64,000 nucleotides of DNA, from NCBI GenBank assembly GCA_038087875.1, contig CM075994.1, forward strand, positions 9,922,001-9,986,000. Direction: 5' to 3'. The stretch's first letter is position 1. The number at the start of each line of letters is the position of its first letter. The DNA comes from Malacoraja senta (Eukaryota). The translations under genes were made by a program, and so were the position numbers. Of this stretch, positions 28,411-60,985 are shown in pieces. The notes beneath the pieces were generated by a model that saw nothing but the letters and a program-made list of their open reading frames with translations, was not told the origin of the DNA and ran no database searches.

Positions 28411-28494
28411 GGCTTGCCCCCAAATTAAATCAACTCCCTCACACTATAAAAATCTTAATCCTTTAAACTGGACCTTCACTAAAAAGCACTGTAC

Positions 28495-28792
28495 CTGAAC
28501 TCACTGTCCCCTTAACTCACTATCCCCTTAACTCACTATCCCCTTAACTCACTGTACCCCTTAACTCACTGTCCCCTTAACTCACTGTCCCCTTAACTCA
28601 CTGTACCCATTAACTCACTGTACCCATTAACTCACTGTACCCCTTAACTCACTGTACCCCTTAACTCACTGTACCCCTTAACTCACTGTCCCCTTAACTC
28701 ACTGTCCCCTTAACTCACTGTCCCCTTAACTCACTGTCCCCTTAACTCACTGTACCCTTAACTCACTGTCCCCTTAACTCACTGTACCCTTA
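28495..28792. repeat. 17-18-bp tandem array in the CR1 5' UTR
   Basis: (ccccttaactcactgt[a]) repeated about 17 times. Confidence 0.92.
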
Positions 28793-29229
28793 ATCAGAAA
28801 GCAGAAAAGCAAACCTGGGGTTGCTTCCTCTTGAACGCTTCCAAAAATCAGCGGCTTCCACCAGACTACTTCCTTTGAAGTGTGCTGGATATTTACAGAC
28901 TGGGTCCTCCTCTCGCTCCAACGGCTCCTGGGCCTCTGTGGAGCAAAGCCCCGCGCTCGATTTTTAAACTCACCGGCCGGATAATCCTCCTCTCGCTCCA
29001 ACGGCTCCTGGGCCTCAATAAGATCCCCACTCATTCTTCTACATGGATAGGTGGGAAATGGGTCAAACGCAGGCACATAGGACTTGGGTAGATGTGGTAT
29101 CTTGGCCAGAATGGACAAGTAGAGACAGCATCCGTGGTCAGGATCGAACTCAGGTCTCCGGCGCTGTGAGGCAGCCACTCTACCGCTGCACCACCGTGCC
29201 ACCCCCAAATCGCGTGTTTTTCTGTCCCA

Positions 29230-30429: not shown

Positions 30430-31250
30430 GTTCGACGGGTCCGGTGAGGCAGCCAGGTGAGTAGGCCCCGGTGCGGCGCGGAGGTGAGTAGGCCCCGGTG
30501 TGGCGCGGAGGTAGGTAGGCCCCCGGTGTGGCCGGGAGGTAGGTAGGCCCGGTGCGGCGCGGAGGTGGATAGGCCCCCGGTGCGACGCGGAGGTAGGTAG
30601 GCCCGGTGCGGCGCAGAGGTGTCTAGGCCCGGTGCGACGCGGAGGTAGGTAGGCTCCCGGTGTGGCGGGGAGGTGGCTAGGCCCGGTGCGGCGCGGAGGT
30701 GGGTAGGCCCCCGGTGCGACGCGGAGGTAGAAAGGCCCCCGGTGTGGCGGGGAGGTGGCTAGGCCCGGTGCGACGCGGAGGTAGGTAGGCCCCCGGTGTG
30801 GTGGGGAGGTGCCTAGGCCCAGTGCGGCGCGGAGGTGGGTAGGCCCCCGGTGCGACGCGGAGGTAGGTAGGCCCCCGGTGCGACGCGCAGGTAGGTAGGC
30901 CCCCAGGTGGGACGCGGAGGTAGGTAGGCACCCGGTGTGACGCGGAGGTAGGTAGGCCCCGGTGCGGCGGCGAGGTGGGTAGGCCCCCGGTGCGTCGCGG
31001 AGGTAGGTAGGCCCCCGGTGTGGCGGGGAGGTGGCTAGGCCCGGTGCGACGCGGAGGTAGGTAGGCCCCCGGTGTGGCGGGGAGGTGGCTAGGCCCGGTG
31101 CGGCGCGGAGGTGGGTAGGCCCCCGGTGCGACGCGGAGGTAGGTAGGCCCCCGGTGCGACGCGCAGGTAGGTAGGCCCCTAGGTGGGACGCGGAGGTAGG
31201 TAGGCCCCCGCTGCGGTGGGGAGGTGGCTAGGCCCGGTGCGGCGGCGAGG
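30430..31250. repeat. GC-rich minisatellite (about 27-30-bp unit ggaggtaggtaggcccccggtgcgacgc)
   Basis: About 28 degenerate tandem copies. Confidence 0.92.
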
Positions 31251-31659
31251 TTCGGCGGGGGGAAAGGGTTAAATAAACTACATACCTTTTGCTTTGTCCT
31301 GCACTTCCAAGAATCTTTGGAGCAAATTCCTCCCCACAATGAATATAAACCCCTCCCCCCCCACACACACACCACCAAAGCCTCCGGAATCGCAAGCACA
31401 GCGCCACTGATGGTAGGGTTTGTATCAACGCCACTATGTCAAATGTTGTATACACCTTGGTGGAGCGAGCCGAGGCTCCCCTAGATCTCGAGGCCCTAAG
31501 CATAAGCTTGTCTAGCTTAAACGTAAATCCGGCCCTGCCTCTCATCATTCTAAACTCCAGAGTATACAAGCCCAGCCGCTCCATTCTCTCAGCGTATGAC
31601 AGTCCCGCCATCCCGGGAATTAACTTTGTATACAAGCCCAGCCGCTTCACTTTAATAGT

Positions 31660-49040: not shown

Positions 49041-49399
49041 AAGCAACTGAAATCAGAGCTGTCCGTCGATCCGTTCATTTTAACGCGTTAACCGCGTCCG
49101 CCAACGGAACAGAAATTACTTTTGTGAAAATATAAAGATTGAAACAATCTCCCTTCCCGCGGGTTCAGCAGCAGCCGCGGGCGGCGGGTCCTGAGTTCCG
49201 GGCTCCCCCGGGTCCTAAAGTCCGCCGATTCTAACCATTTATAGCGCGTTTGCAGCATTTGCTCTCCACACAACAGATTTGTTTTCCTCGGAACGGATCT
49301 TTGGAAGAATGGGTTCAAACCGAATTCACGGTTCCAGGTGGGAGCCCGTTGTGCTCAGGCTCTGCCTGTCTCTCTGTAGGATACTGTTTTGTATTTGGT

Positions 49400-52300
49400 A
49401 CTTACATAGATACATAGAAAATAGGTGCAGCAGTAGGCCATTCGGCCCTTCGAGCCTGCACCGCCATTCAATATGATCATGGCTGATCATCCAACTCAGT
49501 ATCCCGTACCTGCCTTCTCTCCATACGCCCTGATCCCCTTAGCCACAAGGGCCACATCTAACTCCCTCTTAAATATAGCCAATGAACTGGCCTCAACTAC
49601 CCTCTGTGGCAGAGAGTTCCAGAGATTCACCACTCTCTGTGAAAAAGTTTTTCCTCATCTCGGTCTTAAAGGATTTCCCCCTATCCTTAAGCTGTGACCC
49701 CTTGTCCTGGACTTCCCCAATATCGGGAACAATCTTCCTGCATCTAGCCTGTCCAACCCCATAAGAAATGTGTACGTTTCTATAAGATCCCCTCTCAATC
49801 TTCTAAATTCTAGCGAGTATAAGCCAAGTCTATCCAGTCTTTCTTCATATGAAAGTCCTGACATCCCAGGAATCAGTCTGGTGAACCTTCTCTGCACTCC
49901 CTCTATGGCTATAATGTCCTTCCTCAGATTTGGAGACCAAAACTGTACGCAATACTCCAGGTGTGGTCTCAGCAAGACCCTGTACAACTGCAGTAGAACC
50001 TCCCTGCTCCTATACTCAAATCCTTTTGCTATGAAAGCTAACATACCATTCGCTTTCTTCACTGCCTGCTGCACCTGCATGCCTACTTTCAATGACTGGT
50101 GTACCATGACACCCAGGTCTCGCTGCATCTCCCCATTTCCTAATCGGCCACCATTTAGATAGTAGTCTGCTTTCCTGTTTTTGCCACCAAAGTGGATAAC
50201 CTCACATTTATCCACATTATACTGCATCTGCCAAACATTTGCCCACTCACCCAGCCTATCCAAGTCACCTTGCAGTCTCCTAGCATCCTCCTCACAGCTA
50301 ACACTGCCCCCCAGCTTAGTGTCATCCGCAAACTTGGAGATGTTGCCTTCAATTCCCTCATCCAGTTAATTAATATAAATTGTAAATAGCTGAGGTCCCA
50401 GCACTGAGCCTTGCGGTGCCCCACTAGTCACTGCCTGCCATTGTGAAAAGGACCCGTTTACTCCTACTCTTTGCTTCCCGTTTGCCAGCCAGTTCTCTAT
50501 CCACATCAATACTGAACCCCCAATACCGTGTGCTTTAAGTTTGTATACTAATCTCTTATGTGGTACCTTGTCGAAAGACTTCTGAAAGTCCAGATACAAC
50601 ACATCCACTGGTTCTCCCCAATCCACTCTACTAGTTTCATCCTCGAAAAATTCTATAAGATTCGTCAGACATGATTTACCTTTCGTAAATCCATGCTGAC
50701 TTTGTCCAATGATTTCACCACTTTCCAAATGTGCTGCTATCCCATCTTTAATAACTGACTCTAGCAGTTTCCCCACTACCGATGTTAGACTAACTGGTCT
50801 GTAATTCCCCGTTTTCTCTCTCCCTCCCTTCTTAAAAAGTGGGGTTACGTTTGCTACCCTCCAATCCTCAGGAACTACTCCAGAATCTAAAGAGTTTTGA
50901 AAAATTATCATTAATGCATCCACTATTTCTGGAGCTACTTCCTTAAGTACTCTGGGATGCAGCCTATCTGGCCCTGGTGATTTATCGGCCTTTAATCCAT
51001 TCAATTTACCCAACACCACTTCCCGACTAACCTGGATTTCACTCAGTTCCTCCATCTCCTGTGACCCGCGGCCCCCTGCTATTTCCGGTAGATTATTTAT
51101 GTCTTCCTTAGTGAAGACGGAACCAAAGTAGTTATTCAATTGGTCCGCCATATCCTTGTTCCCCATGATCAATTCACCTGTTTCTGACTGCAAGGGACCT
51201 ACATTTGTTTTAACTAATCTCTTTCTCTTCACATATCTATAAAAACGTTTGCAGTCAGTTTTTATGTTCCCTGCCAGTTTCCTTTCATAATCTATTTTCC
51301 CTTTCCCAATTAAGCCCTTTGTCCTCCTCTGCTGGTCTCTGAATTTCTTCCAGTCCTCTGGTATGCTGCTTTTTCTGGCTAATTTGTACGCATCATCTTT
51401 TGCTTTGATACTATCCCTGATTTCCCTTGTTATCCACGGATGCACTACCTTCCCTGATTTATTCTTTTGCCAAACTGGGATGAACAATTTTTGTAGTTCA
51501 TCCATGCAGTCTTTAAATGCCTTCCATTGCATATCCACCGTCAACCCTTTTAGAACTAATTGCCAGTCAATCTTGGCCAATTCACGTCTCATACCCTCAA
51601 AGTTACCTTTCTTTAAGTTCAGAACCGTTGTTTCTGAATTAACAATGTCACTCTCCATCCTAATGAAGAACTCAACCATATTATGGTCACTCTTGCCCAA
51701 GGGGGCACGCACAACAAGACTGCTAACTAACCCTTCCTCATTACTCAATACCCAGTCTCGAATAGCCTGCTCTCTCGTTGGTTCCTCTACATGTTGGTTT
51801 AGATAACTATCCCGCATACATTCCAAGAAATCCTCTTCCTCAGCACCCCTGCCAATTTGATTCACCCAATCTATATGTAGATTGAACTCACCCATTATAA
51901 CTGTTTTGCCTTTGTTGCACGCATTTCTAATTTCCTGTTTGATGCCATCCCCAACTTCACTACTACTGCTAGGTGGCCTGTACACAACACCCACCAGCGT
52001 TTTCTGCCCTTTTGTGTTTCGCAGCTCTACCCATTCCGATTCCACATCCTCCAAGCTAATGTCCTTCCTTTCCACTGCGTTAATCTCCTCTCTAACCAGC
52101 AACGCTACCCCACCTCCTTTTCCTTTCTCTCTATCCCTCCTGAATATTGAATATCCCTGGATGTTCAGCTCCCAGCCTTGGTCACCCTGGAGCCATGTCT
52201 CCGTGATCCCAACTATATCATAATCGTTAATTGCTATCTGCACGTTCAACTCATCCACCTTATTACGAATGCTCCTTGCATTGAGACACAAAGCCTTCAG

Positions 52301-52595
52301 GCTTGTTTTTACAACGCTCTTACCCCTTATACAATTATGTTGAAAAGTGGCCCTTTTTGATTTTTGCCCTGGATTTGTCTGCCTGCCACTTTTACTTTTC
52401 ACCTTGCTACCTATTGCTTCCGCCCGCATTTTACACCCCTCTGTTTCTCTGCTCACCCATTTAAGAACCCCACCACCTCTTATTCTCTGTTTATTATTGT
52501 TTTCTTCTTTCCCCCCTACATGTTGGGTCTGAGTGCTTTCCTTCTCTGCCCCCTGCCTCACACACTGTCTAATAGCATTCTCTATTTGAGTCCCT
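49400..52595 (-). mobile_element. CR1 LINE ORF2 (EN+RT), mostly open, with a 5' cap from a different CR1 subfamily
   Basis: ORF 50366..52561 (731 aa) and 49655..50263; (TTTCTATG) tail. Confidence 0.93.
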
Positions 52596-53002
52596 ACTTG
52601 GAACTGACTTTAAATAACACTCAGACACGGGAGTAAAACTAACAAGCTTCTTAATTCCAGGACGCCACCTTGAGTCTCTCCTGCACATGCGTACCATTGC
52701 ACAAGACATCAAATATGTTAATTACATTACATACCTAACACTCCTCCCCCTTTAACTTGCAAGGCACGTAACACCATTTCTATTACATACACAGCACTCC
52801 TCCCCTTTTAACTCAATTTCACCTTCACGGTATATGCTCTTTACCTAACATATAATTGATTAATATCGGTTGTAAAATTGTATTATTACAGTCATCTTAC
52901 AATACATCCTCATAACTGTAATAACCATATCTAAACTTAGCACATACTTTTTTCATTCCACTCATCTTCCTTAAACAAAATACATTATCCCTTGCTTTAT
53001 GT

Positions 53003-53485
53003 GTTATCCTTTTCCGTTCCCTTATGTGTAAATTGCGCACTATTTCGAATCGCTCTATCTCTGCCTGTATCTCTGCCTCTTCCCATTTTTAAATGTCCTA
53101 ATCTAATTTTGCAGATTTTTTCCTGTTCCTGTTCATTATTTGTAGGTGGCAGCTGACAGATGGCTGCATGTTTTCGTTTTGCTAGCGGCTTCCTTTGTCG
53201 CTCAATTTCCTCGCGCTGCGTATTTATCTGCTCTTGCTGTTTAATGAGATTCTGCAATGCATAACCATTTGTCCATTGCTCAGTGAAGGAGGCTCCATAC
53301 TGGACTGTAATGAAGTGTCCTAGTCGCAATCGGTCCTGCAAACTTTTGTCTCGACCGATAAGCCTCTCTTCTTTAGACATTTCTAGTAGCAGCTTTTTAC
53401 TCATTATCACACATTTATTTAACCGTTCTTTGTATCGTTTAAGCCTTTTCTGTTGTTCATCTATTTGTCTTCTTAAGTCACATTT
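53003..53485 (-). pseudogene. Intron-less tousled-like kinase (TLK2/TLK1-like) coiled-coil fragment
   Basis: [31 protein letters not shown]...[13 protein letters not shown]...[35 protein letters not shown]; after a frameshift near 53083, [26 protein letters not shown]. Confidence 0.88.
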
Positions 53486-56400
53486 CTGGTACTTCATCAA
53501 GAAGTAGGATCTATATTGTCTTTGCAATACAACAGTAGCTTTGATTTGTGCTCTGTATAGTTTTCTTGCTTCATAAGCAAGGTAGTGAGACTGCACTACA
53601 ATTGCTGTATAATTCAGTTTGAGGAAGTCTTTCCTATATCTTTTAAGCCTTTTGTATACTTTAAGCCTTTTCTGTTGTGCATCTATTTGTCTTCTTAAGT
53701 CTTTCCTATACCAACTCATACGGAGTACTGACTGCACTTTTATAGTAGCTCTCTTTTGTTTAACCCACTGCCTAACCACCATACCCTTGTAGGCAGCCTG
53801 AATGGTAATGGTTGCATACCCCATTGATTGATATTGCACAAACTGGGAATGCCCTATTTTGCATGCTTTGTACCATCTCTGGATCGAAATGACTGCTTGT
53901 CGCATAGCTCTGTAGCGTACCCTTGATCGTTTACCACGGTATGCAGCTTGCAGAGTGATTACAGCCGCCTTTTGCATCAAGAAATGTTTTCTTGTAATGC
54001 ACATCATTATGAATGACTTAATATGGCATGCTGCCTTGATTTTCTCAACCAATTCTCTGCCTTTAATCCCACGGTAGAAGGCCTGAATACAAACCACTGC
54101 TTTTCTCAAACTATTATTATTATTTTTTTTAAATAATATTTTTATTAGAAGCAGGTACATATCATGTTGAAAACCTTTCATGTATTTCATTTCTACATTA
54201 CTAATATTATCAAACGTTATTCGTGTTGCCTCCAATAGTTTTTTTTATATAGATAGAAAATAAGAAAATAGCAGAAAAAGAAAGAAAAAAGGGATAATAA
54301 AGAAGAATGGAATAACTTACTATAAGTACATCATTGGAGATATATTCGTACATTTTAAAGTATAACTTTTCATCTAATCCTTGGCTCGAGTTTTAGTCAG
54401 GTTCTCGTGTCGAACCAGTCTGACCCTTCAAGTAGTCAATAAATGGAGACCATGTTCTGATAAACAATTCTTGTTTGTCCATTAGGACAAGTCTAATTCT
54501 TTCCAAATGTAAGGTCTCTGACATTTCTATAATCCACATTTTACTTGTGGGGGTTATAGGAACTTTCCAAAATTTTAATATTAAATTTTTTCCAGTTATT
54601 ATACTATAATCAATAAAGTTTCTTTGAGTTGTTGTAAATGTTTGATTTTGTTCTAATATTCCTAGTATTATTAATTTTGAATCAGGATCCAATTGAGTGT
54701 TGACAACTATAAATATTATTCTAAAAATGCCTGCCCAAATTTTTTTAATTTTTATACAATTCGGAAATGTATGAGTTAGATTAGCTTCTAAATGTTGACA
54801 TTTATCACAAATAGGGGAGATGTGTGGGAAGATTCTATTTAGTTTTGTTTTAGAATAATGTAATCTATAGTACTTTGAATTGTATTGGAGAGTATCTGGC
54901 ATTTAATGAACATTGATGTATATGTTGTAAACTTTTTTCCCAAGTATCTTTCGTTATTGTTTGGTTTAGTTCCTTTTCCCATGTTTGCCTATATAAATCC
55001 GTCGATGGTATCTCACTATCTAATAAGGTGTTACATATATGAGAAATTATTTTTTCTGTATTAGGGTGTTTATTCAAACAGTCGTCAAGGATTTCTGGAT
55101 GTCTAGTTCTAAAGTTTTTAGTGTTTGCTTTGACATAATCTCTAAGTTGTAAATATCTGAAAAAATCATTTAAGTGGAGTCCATAAGTCTGTTGTAGCTC
55201 CTGAAATGAAAGAAATGTGCCTTTCTTATAAAGTTGTCCCATCATTTTAATTCCATAATTTTTCCATTGTATGAAACCTTTATCTAACCTAGAAGGTTTA
55301 AATAAAGGGTTATTCACAATGGGAAGAAAGAGTGATAAATTATCCAATTTTAAGGTCTTTTTTAATTGTTTCCAGATTCGCATACCACTGTATATTATAG
55401 GATTTTCCCTGTAAATTTTGTTGTTCAATTTTGAGGTAGCAGTATCTAACCAATTTCAAAGGGTAAACAGTCTTCCTTTTTCCATTTTTAACCAATCCGG
55501 TTGCTGATCTATTTCTTCCAACCAAAAGTTCATATTTTTAATGTTAACTGCACAAAAATAAAACAAAGAATTAGGTAAAACTAAACCTCCATTTATTTTT
55601 GATTTGCACAGATGTTTTTTGCTTTTCCTATGATTCTTATAATCCCAGATAAAATCAGTGATAATGGAATCCAACTTTTTCAAGAAGTTTTTTGGCAAAT
55701 ATATCGGAATTGTTTGAAAAAGGTATAATATTTGCGGTAAAAAAATCATTTTTATGGCATTAATTTTACCAAACATTGAAATAGGAAGTGTTTTCCAGTA
55801 CTGAATATTCTTATGTAGTTTATTCAGTAAAGGGGGGAAATTTTATTTAAATAATGCTGCATATGTCTTAGTGACATAAATTCCTAGATATTTAAATTTT
55901 TCATTAACTATTTTAAATGGGAATTGTTGTAATATATGTGTATTATGTTCCGTTATTGGCATAATTTCACTTTTATTCCAATTAATTCTGTATCCGGAAA
56001 GTAAACCAAATTGAGTTATTAAATTTAATACATTTGGAATACTAATTTCTGGTTTTGTGATGTAAATTAATACATCATCTGCGTATAAAGTAATTTTATT
56101 CACTGTGTCTTTAGTATTATACCCGTATATTTCCGGGTGGGTCCTAACTCTTTCAGCAAGTGGCTCAATAGCGAGTACAAATAATAATGGAGATAGCGGG
56201 CATCCTTGTCTACAACCTCTAGATAAATTCAATTTAGATGATAACATTTGATTTGTTAATATTCTAGCTGTTGGGTTAGTATAAAAAGTTTTACCCATGT
56301 ACAGAACTTCTCACCCAATTGCAATTTTTCCATCACCGAAAATATATAGGGCCATTCAACCTAATCAAATGCTTTCTCAGCATCTAGTGAGATTATTGCT

Positions 56401-57230
56401 AGGTCTTCGTTAGTGATTCTCTTTGAATATATTATATTAAATAATCGTCTCAAATTATAATATGAATACCGTTTCTGAATAAAGCCTGTTTGGTCAGGGT
56501 GTATTAATTTATTCATCACTGTACTTAATCTGTGTGCTAGGAGTTTAGTTCATATTTTCTGATCTGTATTTAAAAGAGCAATTGCTCTGTATGATCCTGG
56601 ATCTTCGGGATCCTTATCCGCCTTTGGTATAAGTGTTATTATAGATTAGTTTAAAGTTTCTGGCGATTTCTGTTGAATATAAGTGTACTCATACAGTGTT
56701 TGTAAACGTGGGGAGACCAAATCGTAATTTTTAAAATAAAATTCAGAACCTAAAGAAGTAGAAGGCCTGAATACAAACCACTGCTTTTCTCAAACTATTA
56801 TAATGTCGCACTTGGACATCTCTTATCTGGCAAGCTCTGTATCGTTGCTGTACCGCAATGGCAGACCAGCTTAGTTTCTTGAAATAATGACGCAGTTTAT
56901 GCATCTGATAATAAGTCTGTATGACCTTGGCAGAATGCAATTGCTTTCGAACACCCATTCCTCGGTAGGCAGCCTGAAGCAGTACAACACTGCTGCGTAC
57001 CTTCATGTAAGTCTTGCGATCATTTTCCATTTGAAGATGTGCCCTATAATGGGTTTGTACTATTATAGCTGCCAATCTCATTGCCCTGTATGGACGGTAT
57101 ACTCTGTGCATTCTAAATGCTGCTTGTATTACCGTTGATGCCTTCTGTTTGTTCCGGAACTCTCTCCGTACCTTCATACTCCTGAATGCAGCTTGAATAG
57201 TTAGGGTTGCCCTCTGGATGATAATTTCCC
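53486..57230 (-). pseudogene. ASPM-like IQ-repeat fragment, split by L1 (pieces 53486-54117 and 56758-57230)
   Basis: Dense IQ motifs (IQAAFR, LQAAYRG, IQRWYKA, VQQRYRA, IQAFYRG) with ASPM-like spacing. Confidence 0.75.
54118..56757 (-). mobile_element. 5'-truncated L1 (RT and C-terminus) with a 44-bp TSD
   Basis: RGCRQGCPLSPLLF, LYADD, SGYRINWNKS; exact repeat gtagaaggcc...aaactattat at 54074-54117 and 56758-56801. Confidence 0.92.
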
Positions 57231-57231
57231 T

Positions 57232-57510
57232 TTGCACTTGACTTTTGTCCACTTGACTTTTGTCCCTTTACACTTGACTTTTGTCCTCTTGACTTTTGTC
57301 CCTTTGCACTTGACTTTTGTCCACTTGCCTTTTGTCCACTTGACTTTTGCCAACTTCACTTTTGTCCACTTGACTTTTGTCCACTTGACTTCTGTCCCTT
57401 TGCACTTGACCTTTGTCCACTTGACTTTTGTCCACTTGCCTTTTGTCCCTATGCCCTTGACCTTTTTCCACTTGCCTTTTGTCCCTTTGCACTAGACTTT
57501 TGTCCTTTGA
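57232..57510. repeat. Coding tandem repeat (15/21-bp units; DKSQV, QRDKSQV)
   Basis: (ttgacttttgtccac)n with interspersed ctttgcac. Confidence 0.9.
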
Positions 57511-57989
57511 GGGACTCTCTGCCCTCTTTAGTTCAGGCTCCTTGCCTCTGGATGCCCTTGGAGGTTTTGGCGAGAAATGAGCCATTAATGCCTCCTTACA
57601 CTCCTCGTACGTTTTATCCGTGGGCTTTGCTGGCCGCAGCAACGTACATAAGGTGTGATAACCCTCTATTCCTGAGCCTAATATGAACCATGCTCTCTTC
57701 TTCTCCTCTGCAGTGATGTCATTGGAAGTGAATGAAGCCTCCAAGACTTCAGTCCATTTCTCAAAATTACACCCAGTATCTAACTGGCAACTTTCCTACA
57801 ATTTGAAAAGCCATGTTACCCTGTTGCTATTCAGGTGCACTATCTTCTGTTCTCTCACTGTGTTTTCTGCCCTGGACGTAATCCTTTTACATTATAAGAA
57901 ATTATCCAGCCCACTGACAATTACTAATTCTTATAATAATAGATGTATTCGAATAAACCAACATTTCATGTTTATAGCCAACTAGTACA

Positions 57990-59880
57990 TTTTATTATTT
58001 TTGTTTAATCTTTATTTTATTAGAAGCAATTGTACAAGAATAAAGCAATCGGCATAACAATTATACAATTTTCGTAGCTTCATTTTTAACATTTTATAAA
58101 TTGATACATGAAACGGAAAAAAAAAGTAAAAAGAAAAGAAGGAAGAAAAAGAAGAAAGATACAAAAAAGAGAGAAGAAAAGACCCCTGAACTGCCAAAGA
58201 AGTGCGAGAAGAGAAAAAAAAAGTGAAAAAAAGAAGGAAAAAAAGGAGATATGTCCCACTATCCTTCCCTTCCCTGCTCAACCATCCCAAGCATCGGTTT
58301 TTAATTTGTGTTCAACCATTCCATTGTTGAAGAAATTCAGTAATCAAGGAGACCATATTTTGGAGAATTGGTCTGATTTATCAGCCAAAACAAGCCTAAT
58401 TTTTTCTAAATGTAGTGACTCGGTCATTTCAGTGTTCCACATCTTCACTGTGGGAACTGTTATCTTTTTCCAGAATTTGAATATAAGTTTTTCGCAGTTA
58501 TTAAGCCGTAGTCAAGGAAACGTCTTTGGAATGTCGTTAACCTGGAACAGCCCTCTGACATTCCTAAAATTATTAGTTTTGTATCTGACTCCAGTTGAAT
58601 TTTAAGAGTTTTAGAGATGATATCGAATATTCCCATCCAGAAATTTTGTATTTTTATACAGGATGCGAAGGAATGGGTAAAGGTAGCTTCTTGGAGGTGA
58701 CATTTATCACAGATAGAGGAGACAGTTGGGAAGATCTTATTCAATTTAGTCTTTGAATAGTATAGCCTGTGCAATATTTTGAATTGTATCAGGCAATGCC
58801 TGACATTTAAAGAACAGTAATGTATGTAAAGTAGGCTTTCCTCCCATATATCTTTTGAAATAGATAAACCCAACTCATCTTCCCAAGCTCACCTATACAT
58901 CTCAGAAGGTGGGGTATCAACATTTAAAAGAGTGTTATAAATGTAAGATATCAACTTACTTGTATCGGCATGTCTATTCAGACAATCATCTAATATATCT
59001 GGACCCATAAAAGGACAATCTTGTGTGTATGTTTTCACATAATCTCGGATTTGAAGGTATCTAAAAAGATCGTTTGCTTTCAAATGATATTTCTCCTGTA
59101 GTTCTTGAAAAGAAAAGAGAGTCCCCTTCTTATAGAGGTCTCCCACAGTATTAATTCCTAGGTTTTTCCATTGAACAAACACCCTATCTAAAGTAGGTTT
59201 AAACGAGGGATTGTTAGCAATAGGCAGGAGAGACAAATTTCTCAGTTTAAGACTTAATTTCAGCTGTTTCCAGATACGCAGGGTACTGTGTATTATTGGA
59301 TTTTGCTCATACGTTGACTTATTCAGATGTATTGGAGATAGAAGAATCGAGCCTATGTTAAAAGGCAAACAATCTTCCCTCTCCATTTTTAACCAATTTA
59401 CCTGTTGACATGTATCGTCCAACCAGGAGATTATATTTTTAATGTTAGTCGCCCAGTAGTAGAAAAGAAAGTTTGGAAGAGCTAATCCTCCGTTTTCTTT
59501 GGATTTGCACAAATGTCTTTTATGTATTCTATGGGTTTTGTAGTCCCAAATAAAGTTAGTGATAGTAGAATCAATTTTTTTTAAAAAGTTTTGGGGAGAT
59601 ATATTGATTGAAATAAATATAGGAGTTGCAGAAGGAAGATATCTTTATGGCATTTACTCTACCTATAAGGGAAATAGGAAGTGTTTTCCAAAATTGAATG
59701 TTGGCATATAGTTTAGTAATTAATGGTGGGAAATTTGTTTTAAATAGAGAGAGTGTTTTCTAGTCACGCAAACTCCGAGATATCTAAACTTTCCGGCAAC
59801 AATTCTGAAGGGAAATTTTTGGAATTGAGAAGGGTCTTGAACTTTTATTGGCATAATTTCACTTTTAATCCAATCTATAT
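57990..59880 (-). mobile_element. L1 3' part (degraded)
   Basis: ORFs 58889..59512 (GGLALPNF, FRYLQIRDY) and 58460..58873 (QFKILHRLY, CDKC..H...C). Confidence 0.9.
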
Positions 59881-59889
59881 TACTAAAAC

Positions 59890-60985
59890 TAAGAACTTGA
59901 CCACTTTCTGACTTCCTGTTTCGTGGTTTCCGAAAGAATGCCGCCACTTACGGCCGTCATTTTTTGGCCACCTCGCTCAAGAGCACCCCTCCGCCGGACT
60001 GGACCAGAGGATTTTTCCCATCGATGAAAAATCAGAGGGTTATTAATGTTTTTTTTAAATGTCGCCATTCTCTATGTGCCCCCCACTGGCGGCAGTGGGG
60101 AGGGACTATAAAACCCGGAATTGTCGTGCCTCACTCAGTCTCTGTTAGATGGAGGAAGCGAGAGGATCACGGCTCTCTGAGCTGCAAATAACACTGAACG
60201 CACGTCTACTCGACGGTGAGTCCCCTCGATGTGCTTGTAAAGTGTTTGCCAAATTGTTTGTCTTGGCTTTTAAACGTTAGAATCATTCGGTTTACACACT
60301 GTATGTTTACCACGTTCTGATGTTACTTGGCATTTTAGTATTGGTTGTGAGTGTGTGTGAGTGTGTGTGTGTGTGTGTGTGTTTGCAGAAAATGTATTGG
60401 TTGTAAAGTGTTTGACAAATTGCCTTGGCTTTTAAAAGGCTTTCAGAAAATGGATTGGTTGTGAAGTGTTTGCCAAATTGTCTGTCTTGGTTTTTTAAAT
60501 CGTTTTCGGATGGATAAAGCTTGAATAAACATTATATTAGATCAGGACTGTGTGTAATTGCAAAATTGGCGCTCATTCCGTGACTTCCGCCGCTCGGCGG
60601 GTTTTAACGGGCTCGCTAAGCTGGAACCAATGGTAAGTGCTTACCTGCAGTTCATCGGGTGTGCTCCAGTTGGCGTAGCATAGCAACAGTATGGGTCACG
60701 GGTCGTGACCCGACTGCCGTGCATCCTCCCTGTGTGTGTGCGCGCGCGCGCGTGCGTGCGTTTGCGTTTGCGTTTGCCTTGCTTTTAAAAAGTTTTCAGA
60801 AAATGGATTGGTTGTAAAGTGTTTGCCAAATTTCCTGTCTTGGTTTTTTTAATCGTTTTCGGATGGATAAAGTGTGAATAAACATTTTATTAGATCAGGC
60901 CTGTGTTTAATTGCAAAATTGGCCTCATTCCGTGACTTCCGCCGTTCGGCGGGTTTTAACGGGCTCGCTACGCTGGAAACAATGG
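59890..60985. mobile_element. Probable non-autonomous DNA transposon with internal ~200-bp direct repeat
   Basis: 60432-60633 is repeated at 60784-60985; 60640-60730 matches the THAP-element terminus at 42358-42448. Confidence 0.5.

Follow-up and report, generated by a model that had tools for sequence, protein, structure and literature searches.

A high-copy Ty3/Gypsy family carrying in-frame pieces of ASPM and TLK2 in a skate genome

Acutely transducing retroviruses depend on a helper: where pol would be, they have spliced host sequence that continues the gag frame. In animals, the accessible sections of one survey describe retrocopies made through long terminal repeat (LTR) elements, in which partial mRNAs lie within the element, short words are shared at the junctions, and several genes can be joined, as in a mouse chimera of four genes and an Alu; template switching inside the particle is the model offered for such chimeras, and secondary retroposition is considered possible (PMC5131818). 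Maize Bs1, as portrayed in the available parts of two papers, is an LTR element with several host gene pieces, a hybrid open frame, and switch points common to all copies (PMC5131818, PMC13317346). Both the capture route, LTR template switching, and multi-gene chimeras are thus already known. In zebrafish, LTR elements whose interior is replaced by host gene sequence have been described, and in Drosophila, telomeric retrotransposons carry host gene pieces at about 90% identity in a spreading family, according to excerpts of the respective papers (PMC8672886; PMC13534243). Here, we describe a 64,000-nucleotide stretch of the genome of the skate Malacoraja senta (the window; contig C18, positions 9922001-9986000, in a 1.94-Gb assembly), which almost certainly contains a broken, L1-interrupted, and 5'-truncated copy of a non-autonomous Ty3/Gypsy family whose gag is followed by pieces of two host genes, ASPM and TLK2. 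This degree of certainty concerns the identity of the element and is separate from the figure given below for the whole explanatory account.

LTR gene capture is usually viewed as a source of rare, one-off retrocopies, whereas here a two-gene capture forms a lasting high-copy family, with the parent, the TLK2 donor, and intermediate stages all in one genome. This makes it testable whether captured host pieces help an element, and whether they do so via RNA or protein. No report of the family was found in the literature searched, which did not extend to repeat libraries (Repbase, Dfam), most subscription journals, or supplementary files; the supplement of PMC5131818, with its vertebrate cases and copy numbers, may be relevant to novelty. 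Within that literature, the scale, the persistence, the exact replacement of pol, and the frame selection appear to be new for a vertebrate.

Parts, donors, and copies of the family

Three loci (L067, L072, and L073) carry a complete Gypsy element that shares the LTR and leader of the family, and this match bears out the gag and LTR character predicted for the flanks of the window copy. The parent is ordered gag, protease, reverse transcriptase, RNase H, and integrase; its Pfam matches above the cut-off are RVT_1, RT_RNaseH, Integrase_H2C2, and rve, and protease and gag fall below it, the gag of L067 having weak PNMA and Retrotrans_gag matches. The LTRs of the parent are 98.2% alike and a 5-bp target duplication is present, although the copy itself is broken. 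Between the integrase stop and the 3' LTR there are about 220 nt in the one parent copy examined, which leaves no room for env. Relative to this parent, the chimera retains the gag N-terminus, lacks 346 gag bases (an in-frame internal deletion, L067 1858-2203), enters ASPM at the gag end, and rejoins the parent where integrase stops; short words are shared at this second boundary of the cargo and probably at the first. Judged by sequence, the cargo replaces the whole pol gene of the parent, in agreement with the original prediction of a non-autonomous element without pol. At the gag-pol border of L067, a TAG in frame with pol (L067:2414-2416) is either a read-through stop or a mutation of that copy. 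A single-sequence fold of the parent gag gave no usable model (mean pLDDT 37).

The window copy lies on the minus strand, where the parts originally named (a gag N-terminus, a tandem repeat, IQ repeats, a TLK coiled coil, and a polypurine tract) are all in place. It begins with the 3' end of the leader (57815..57994), since dispersed copies align only as far as 57994; the window copy thus has neither a 5' LTR nor a primer site and little of the leader, and full-length copies have 1.0-1.4 kb more leader, the primer site, and the 5' LTR beyond this remnant. The gag N-terminal part (57565..57814; about 85 codons) is homologous to the gag of L067 and has Atlas look-alikes of the DUF7041/Retrotrans_gag type at 0.89-0.91. 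Its ATG, at 57814, is out of phase with a 175-codon frame at 57795-57268, and just after it the window copy is 2 nt shorter than other copies, so the frameshift supposed to separate the gag ATG is real. A gag spacer (57506..57564) follows the internal deletion and is succeeded, at the gag-ASPM junction, by a tandem repeat of 15/21-nt units (57227-57505, of which 57235..57505 is assigned to this part) that sits where the old subfamily has a double zinc knuckle; the predicted TAA stop at 57270-57268 does fall within this repeat.

Two pieces of ASPM follow, both with Pfam IQ motifs (E 3.5e-17 and 4.6e-14). Piece A of the IQ repeats (56758..57246) corresponds to residues 2802-2968 of Amblyraja ASPM (P0279) with 75% amino-acid identity, and piece B (53483..54117) to P0279 from residue 2955 with 86% over 139 residues; the latter is interrupted, without loss of frame, by some 72 inserted nt (about 53701-53630), which open with a second copy of the first 51 nt of the TLK2 piece. 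The predicted TLK cargo is a TLK coiled coil and can be narrowed to TLK2 (53000..53482; E 3e-54, PDB 5o0y): it spans residues 194 to about 375 of skate TLK2 (P0007), covers five host exons without their four introns, and includes no kinase domain. When the later L1 is removed, the two pieces on either side of it join in the same phase over a combined 2064 nt, as foreseen. In the subgroup of the window, the last ~28 codons before the predicted frame end at 52997 are off the TLK2 frame. Beyond the cargo come the 3' untranslated stretch of the parent (52754..52999), with a duplicated polypurine tract at 52809-52797, the polypurine tract adjoining the 3' LTR (52741..52753), the main part of that LTR (52595..52740; 90% identical to the 5' LTR of L070), and, at 49385..49403, its final 19 nt, ending in CA, as placed by comparison with the LTR ends of other copies. 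The predicted LTR is indeed similar to those of the parent and of L070, but it starts at 52740, after the second polypurine tract, and not at 52796.

In the family as a whole, the cargo amounts to about 350 ASPM codons and five TLK2 exons, in frame behind a shortened gag. ASPM is the best match of the IQ repeats. In an old copy, the IQ part has 85-86% amino-acid identity to the ASPM of two skates, Amblyraja and Rhinoraja (of three skate entries compared, two are Amblyraja isoforms), the window pieces being at 75-86%, and 44-69% to ten ASPM entries of other fishes, with three other batoids at 64-69%. The higher identity to skate ASPM than to that of other batoids places the capture in the skate line, and the same figures rule out a non-ASPM IQ protein as the source. 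The TLK2 part matches its five host exons on contig C10 at 87-100% nucleotide identity, and, because all four introns are absent, it derives from an mRNA template. Capture of two host mRNAs had been predicted; for ASPM, we infer the mRNA origin, because the host gene was not found in the assembly with four queries, probably owing to an assembly or search gap. We presume that the captured ASPM piece may sit within one large exon. Batoid ASPM proteins (P0126, P0277, and P0279) contain recent tandem repeats of a 219-residue IQ block, and the captured piece begins in the last block. A further copy has entered a protein database: Leucoraja (little skate) RefSeq XP_055489032.1 (P0256), annotated as 'ASPM homolog isoform X1', consists of the gag, repeat, and ASPM parts of a family member and is 88-95% identical in amino acids to young copies in the gag and ASPM parts. 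The family can accordingly inflate copy counts and RNA-seq levels of ASPM and TLK2 in skates. The cargo is strongly basic (pI 10.8), and it might, speculatively, bind RNA in place of the lost knuckle.

A first look returned 258 candidates with a 3' cargo query and 259 with a gag end query; 40 candidates were scored for each query, and all 40 matched both times. With a protein query, 91 candidates were scored and at least 114 matches were listed, on many large contigs. None of these counts gives the exact number of copies, since unplaced contigs may in part be duplicated. Near-window copies (94-100%) sit between the same L1s and stem from a single insertion by duplication; the dispersed ones (87-93%) are without the L1 and have unrelated flanks. 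The LTRs are TG...CA direct repeats, 89.8% alike in L061 and 98.75% in L070, and these two copies, the only ones with both LTRs in view, both have a 5-bp target duplication. A conserved primer-binding site of the TGGCGACGAGG type stands directly after the 5' LTR and presumably matches the end of a serine tRNA. Secondary spread is evident from dispersed copies on many large contigs, with unrelated flanks and target duplications of their own. The multicopy family thus stands as predicted, and an assembly chimera is excluded because the same junctions recur at dozens of independent loci. An L1-made processed pseudogene or a DNA duplication is ruled out by the LTR pairs, the primer site, the 5-bp duplications, and the intron loss.

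The copies form a ladder in a tree of 47 (four loci repeating others and loci covering <55% of the region were left out), which leads from an old group with the double zinc knuckle through an intermediate one to young copies in a star-like arrangement, with the C18 cluster as a fourth group. The knuckle, a double CCHC motif with weak zf-CCHC matches, is retained by the old copies L061, L062, L069, and L070; it presumably fits the Mag clade of Gypsy. In L070, the first ASPM residues are starting to repeat, and, to judge from L070 and L029, the tandem repeat would have grown at the gag-ASPM junction as the knuckle was lost. The LTRs of L070 are only 1.25% apart although this copy is in the old group on a long branch; either gene conversion took place or the old subfamily was still active late. 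A truncated copy at L063 has as its neighbour (L063:1-1310) a 436-codon integrase frame from an unrelated Gypsy element.

Reading frame, selection, and transcripts

In the copies naturally free of L1 (L029, L030, and L066), a single frame runs through gag, the repeat, ASPM, and TLK2, broken by 1-2 stops ahead of the common end. Copies with an intact open reading frame, which the original prediction proposed to look for, were not present among those examined. At none of 33 loci with the ATG in view (some being the same place fetched twice) is the frame open into TLK2, the longest first frame having 390 codons, and when 91 candidates were scored against a natural stretch of 466 residues, the locus from which that stretch came was alone in matching from end to end without a stop, and it has a stop upstream.

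Evidence for a formerly maintained frame comes from the distribution of disruptions over 30 copies and 509 codons. All 34 frameshifting indels are confined to single copies, and stops arise at a rate of 24 per 519 single-copy substitutions. Comparison of 5 old with 15 young copies gives approximately 85 fixed differences, none of them a disruption, with ~9.5 expected from the single-copy rate (P ~1e-4); two flagged stops are private to the reference copy, and no subfamily shares a stop in the 509-codon region. The gag deletion, the loss of the knuckle, the growth of the repeat, and the 72-nt insert each kept the frame. Of 12 young copies, 11 leave the frame for ~36 codons in the TLK2 tail, the stop that the host exon has in the shifted frame is missing from all 11, and 10 of the 11 return to the TLK2 frame before the shared stop.

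Amino-acid constraint was assessed by the ratio of replacement to silent substitution rates (dN/dS), which within groups is 0.85-1.33 over all codons. As a net value from old to young copies, the cargo has a ratio of 0.59 (0.37-0.93), against 1.34 (0.58-4.03) in gag, in which the fixed changes (22 replacement, 4 silent) indicate no constraint. The cargo values from old to middle copies (0.79) and from old copies to the C18 cluster (1.41) do not differ from those within groups. The lowest ratio, 0.30 (interval 0.08-0.90), is found in 69 codons of the 5' TLK2 part. The excess of silent changes in the cargo resides in transitions only (p 0.004; transversions, p 0.81). Re-capture from the host is ruled out as its cause, given that old copies hold the host state, matching the host at 10/10 TLK2 sites and skate ASPM at 28/31 replacement sites. 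With 20 uncorrected selection contrasts, the amino-acid constraint must be regarded as modest and insecure. Altogether, the frame constraint is the stronger result and the constraint on cargo amino acids is weak; the signal of selection favours an open frame over a conserved protein.

Family RNA was detected in one poly(A) paired run, of which ~6% was read (7.3 million records) and which, from an unspecified tissue, may or may not stem from the species of the window. At 88% likeness, 628 reads fall on L029 and cover 30/30 bins, with depth climbing towards the 3' end. Over gag, TLK2, and the 3' untranslated stretch, the reads come overwhelmingly from one strand, which is the sense direction under the usual library chemistry, and parts of the ASPM region and junction have mixed strands. 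Depth is unbroken across the ASPM-TLK2 junction (13-23), a figure for depth only and not a count of spanning reads. At four diagnostic sites, the reads hold the letters of the element and not those of host TLK2; together with private changes, a 2-nt loss, and a 76-nt deletion, this indicates that most reads come from one broken copy. Host TLK2 mRNA as their source is mostly ruled out by these letters and by the coverage of gag, leader, and 3' untranslated stretch. The 76-nt skip is no intron of the GT-AG type and looks like a deletion in one expressed copy. Among the indexed samples containing the family, none was recorded as RNA, which speaks neither for nor against expression.

How the family may have arisen and why its frame may have stayed open

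The account preferred here, a chimera made by template switching, copied in trans, and selected for its frame through its own RNA, is given a probability of about 55%. A skate Ty3/Gypsy element would have packaged host mRNAs alongside its own RNA, and its reverse transcriptase would have jumped three times at short shared words: on reaching the gag end it moved onto ASPM, then onto TLK2, and finally back onto the parent, at the stop of integrase. The word at the TLK2-to-parent junction is seen directly, and we infer such words at the gag-ASPM and ASPM-TLK2 switch points, host ASPM DNA being absent from the comparison. The chimera lost all of pol and retained the LTRs, primer site, and polypurine tract. 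Because all cis signals were retained and no enzymes, its copying is likely to have taken place in trans, by the proteins of the parent, through several successive subfamilies. While the family was active, selection would have preserved a single long frame that opens at the gag ATG and extends almost to the 3' LTR, with amino acids under loose constraint only. The likeliest reason may be that translation to near the end shields the RNA of the element from nonsense-mediated decay or links it to particle assembly; a benefit to the RNA is suggested because the frame was maintained in spite of drift in gag, loss of the knuckle, and a change of frame in the TLK2 tail. Several observations weigh against this account. 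The figure of 9.5 expected disruptions presupposes that mutation in the active lineage resembles that in dead copies, and this may not hold. The young subfamily has a shared stop ~34 codons ahead of the old end, and, because of this early stop and because the subgroup of the window ends after the shift, the tail was not strictly kept. Changes fixed in the cargo (36 replacement, 23 silent) differ from those in single copies (315 and 98, with single-copy stops counted as replacements; p 0.016), and the cargo is more constrained than gag (p 0.043), which a pure open-frame model does not predict. Moreover, the ASPM-TLK2 shared word relies on a loose end taken from contigs of other samples.

The greater constraint on the cargo than on gag, for which re-capture is not the cause, would be expected if the fusion protein itself aided the element in trans. 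A kinase-less TLK2 coiled coil could poison host TLK dimers, which act in chromatin assembly and the cell cycle, a reading that is conceivable and rather unlikely; that the IQ row binds calmodulin or directs particles to the germ-cell spindle is doubtful to a similar degree. The low ratio of the 5' TLK2 part and the presence of sense-biased family RNA fit such a protein, as does the report, in the accessible text of one study, that TLK2 coiled coils drive dimerisation and that CC1 is required for binding TLK1 (PMC6023931). However, 36 amino-acid changes became fixed in 405 cargo codons, the constraint signal appears in transitions only and in one or two of four group contrasts, the TLK2 tail was frameshifted and shortened, and no intact copy was met among the 33 ATG loci or the 91 scored candidates. 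The captured TLK2 piece also seems to begin within the first coiled coil, taking the boundary to be where we assume it, and this counts against a working protein. It can thus be suggested only tentatively that the lineage kept, under selection across subfamilies, a protein made of an ASPM IQ rod and a kinase-less TLK2 coiled coil to manipulate germ-cell chromatin or spindle to the benefit of its own spread. If it did, the lineage would be the transposon counterpart of a viral oncogene.

A neutral passenger, in which accidental captures with lucky in-frame junctions spread through LTRs and packaging signals alone, is disfavoured and considered improbable. Young LTR retrocopies are often in frame (14/17 in Drosophila, in the part of the survey at hand; PMC5131818), and the within-group ratios and the broken state of every examined copy agree with neutrality, but the absence of shared disruptions does not, and neither do four frame-preserving rearrangements (the deletion, the knuckle loss, the repeat growth, and the 72-nt insert) or a TLK2 tail in which a compensated frameshift is accompanied by the loss of a stop. 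Equally improbable is a shield against silencing, whereby pieces of two essential cell-division genes would make small-RNA silencing costly to the host, or small RNAs of the element would target those genes. It has a parallel in the Drosophila telomeric elements, among which, in the excerpt available, those with captured fragments are more numerous and piRNAs hit the host gene at ~90% identity (PMC13534243); the TLK2 piece is 87-100% identical to host exons, and some opposite-strand reads lie over the ASPM part. Such a shield leaves the frame maintenance and the silent-site excess unexplained, and the genes captured in Drosophila belong mostly to the piRNA pathway, to which ASPM and TLK2 do not.

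Later insertions and comparison with described systems

Two insertions in the window copy, both on the minus strand, postdate the family and are not part of it. A 5'-truncated L1-type element with an A-rich tail (54118..56757) occupies a place where dispersed copies are continuous; the exact 44-bp target duplication expected around it is present (56801-56758 and 54117-54074), a length that we take to be long for an L1-type insertion. This L1 is common to many copies of the C18 cluster. A LINE inside the LTR end (49404..52594), with a 5-nt duplication, is presumably of the CR1 type, judging by features of its open reading frame. A second L1 lies at about 58000-59880, and a short repeat between the L1s, at window 60232-60985, is present in two or three copies ~353 bp apart. 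At least four element copies with shared flanking L1s lie within 135 kb (C18:9.845-9.980 Mb), with others on about a dozen small contigs, and, because the nearby copies have these L1s in common, the C18 region is regarded as a segmental or tandem amplification. Nothing but repeats was found in the amplified unit, the long frames of the window being LINEs or low-complexity sequence. A GC-rich 28/54-bp minisatellite and a 16-bp minisatellite are located at window 30461-31251 and 28494-28793, in that order.

Compared with the animal retrocopies covered in the available text of PMC5131818, which concern single or few loci, the skate family is found at ~90 scored places and 258 candidates, is divided into several subfamilies, has its pol exactly replaced, and allows frame selection to be tested along an active lineage. 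The zebrafish elements are described, in the excerpt of PMC8672886, as LTRs driving host genes, and neither a two-gene gag fusion nor a high-copy family is reported in that excerpt. The telomeric elements of Drosophila are LINE-type, carry 140-235-bp pieces of mostly piRNA-pathway genes, and act via small RNAs, according to the portion of PMC13534243 consulted, whereas the skate cargo is ~1.6 kb of coding sequence in frame with gag. Bs1 is a plant element with one to five copies and pieces of three genes, one of them out of frame, and is reported in the accessible parts of both sources as transcribed and translated (PMC5131818, PMC13317346); the skate family belongs to a vertebrate, is high-copy, has both pieces in frame, and is known from DNA and RNA reads alone. 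An intact copy under purifying selection, the mark of a domesticated chimeric gene like Bs1, was not found among the copies examined. The likeness to an acutely transducing retrovirus drawn in the original prediction holds for the architecture, a gag-host fusion replacing pol, and stops there: the skate parent is of the Gypsy type with no room for env, no catalytic domain such as the TLK2 kinase was captured, and the family bears no sign of infection or transformation.

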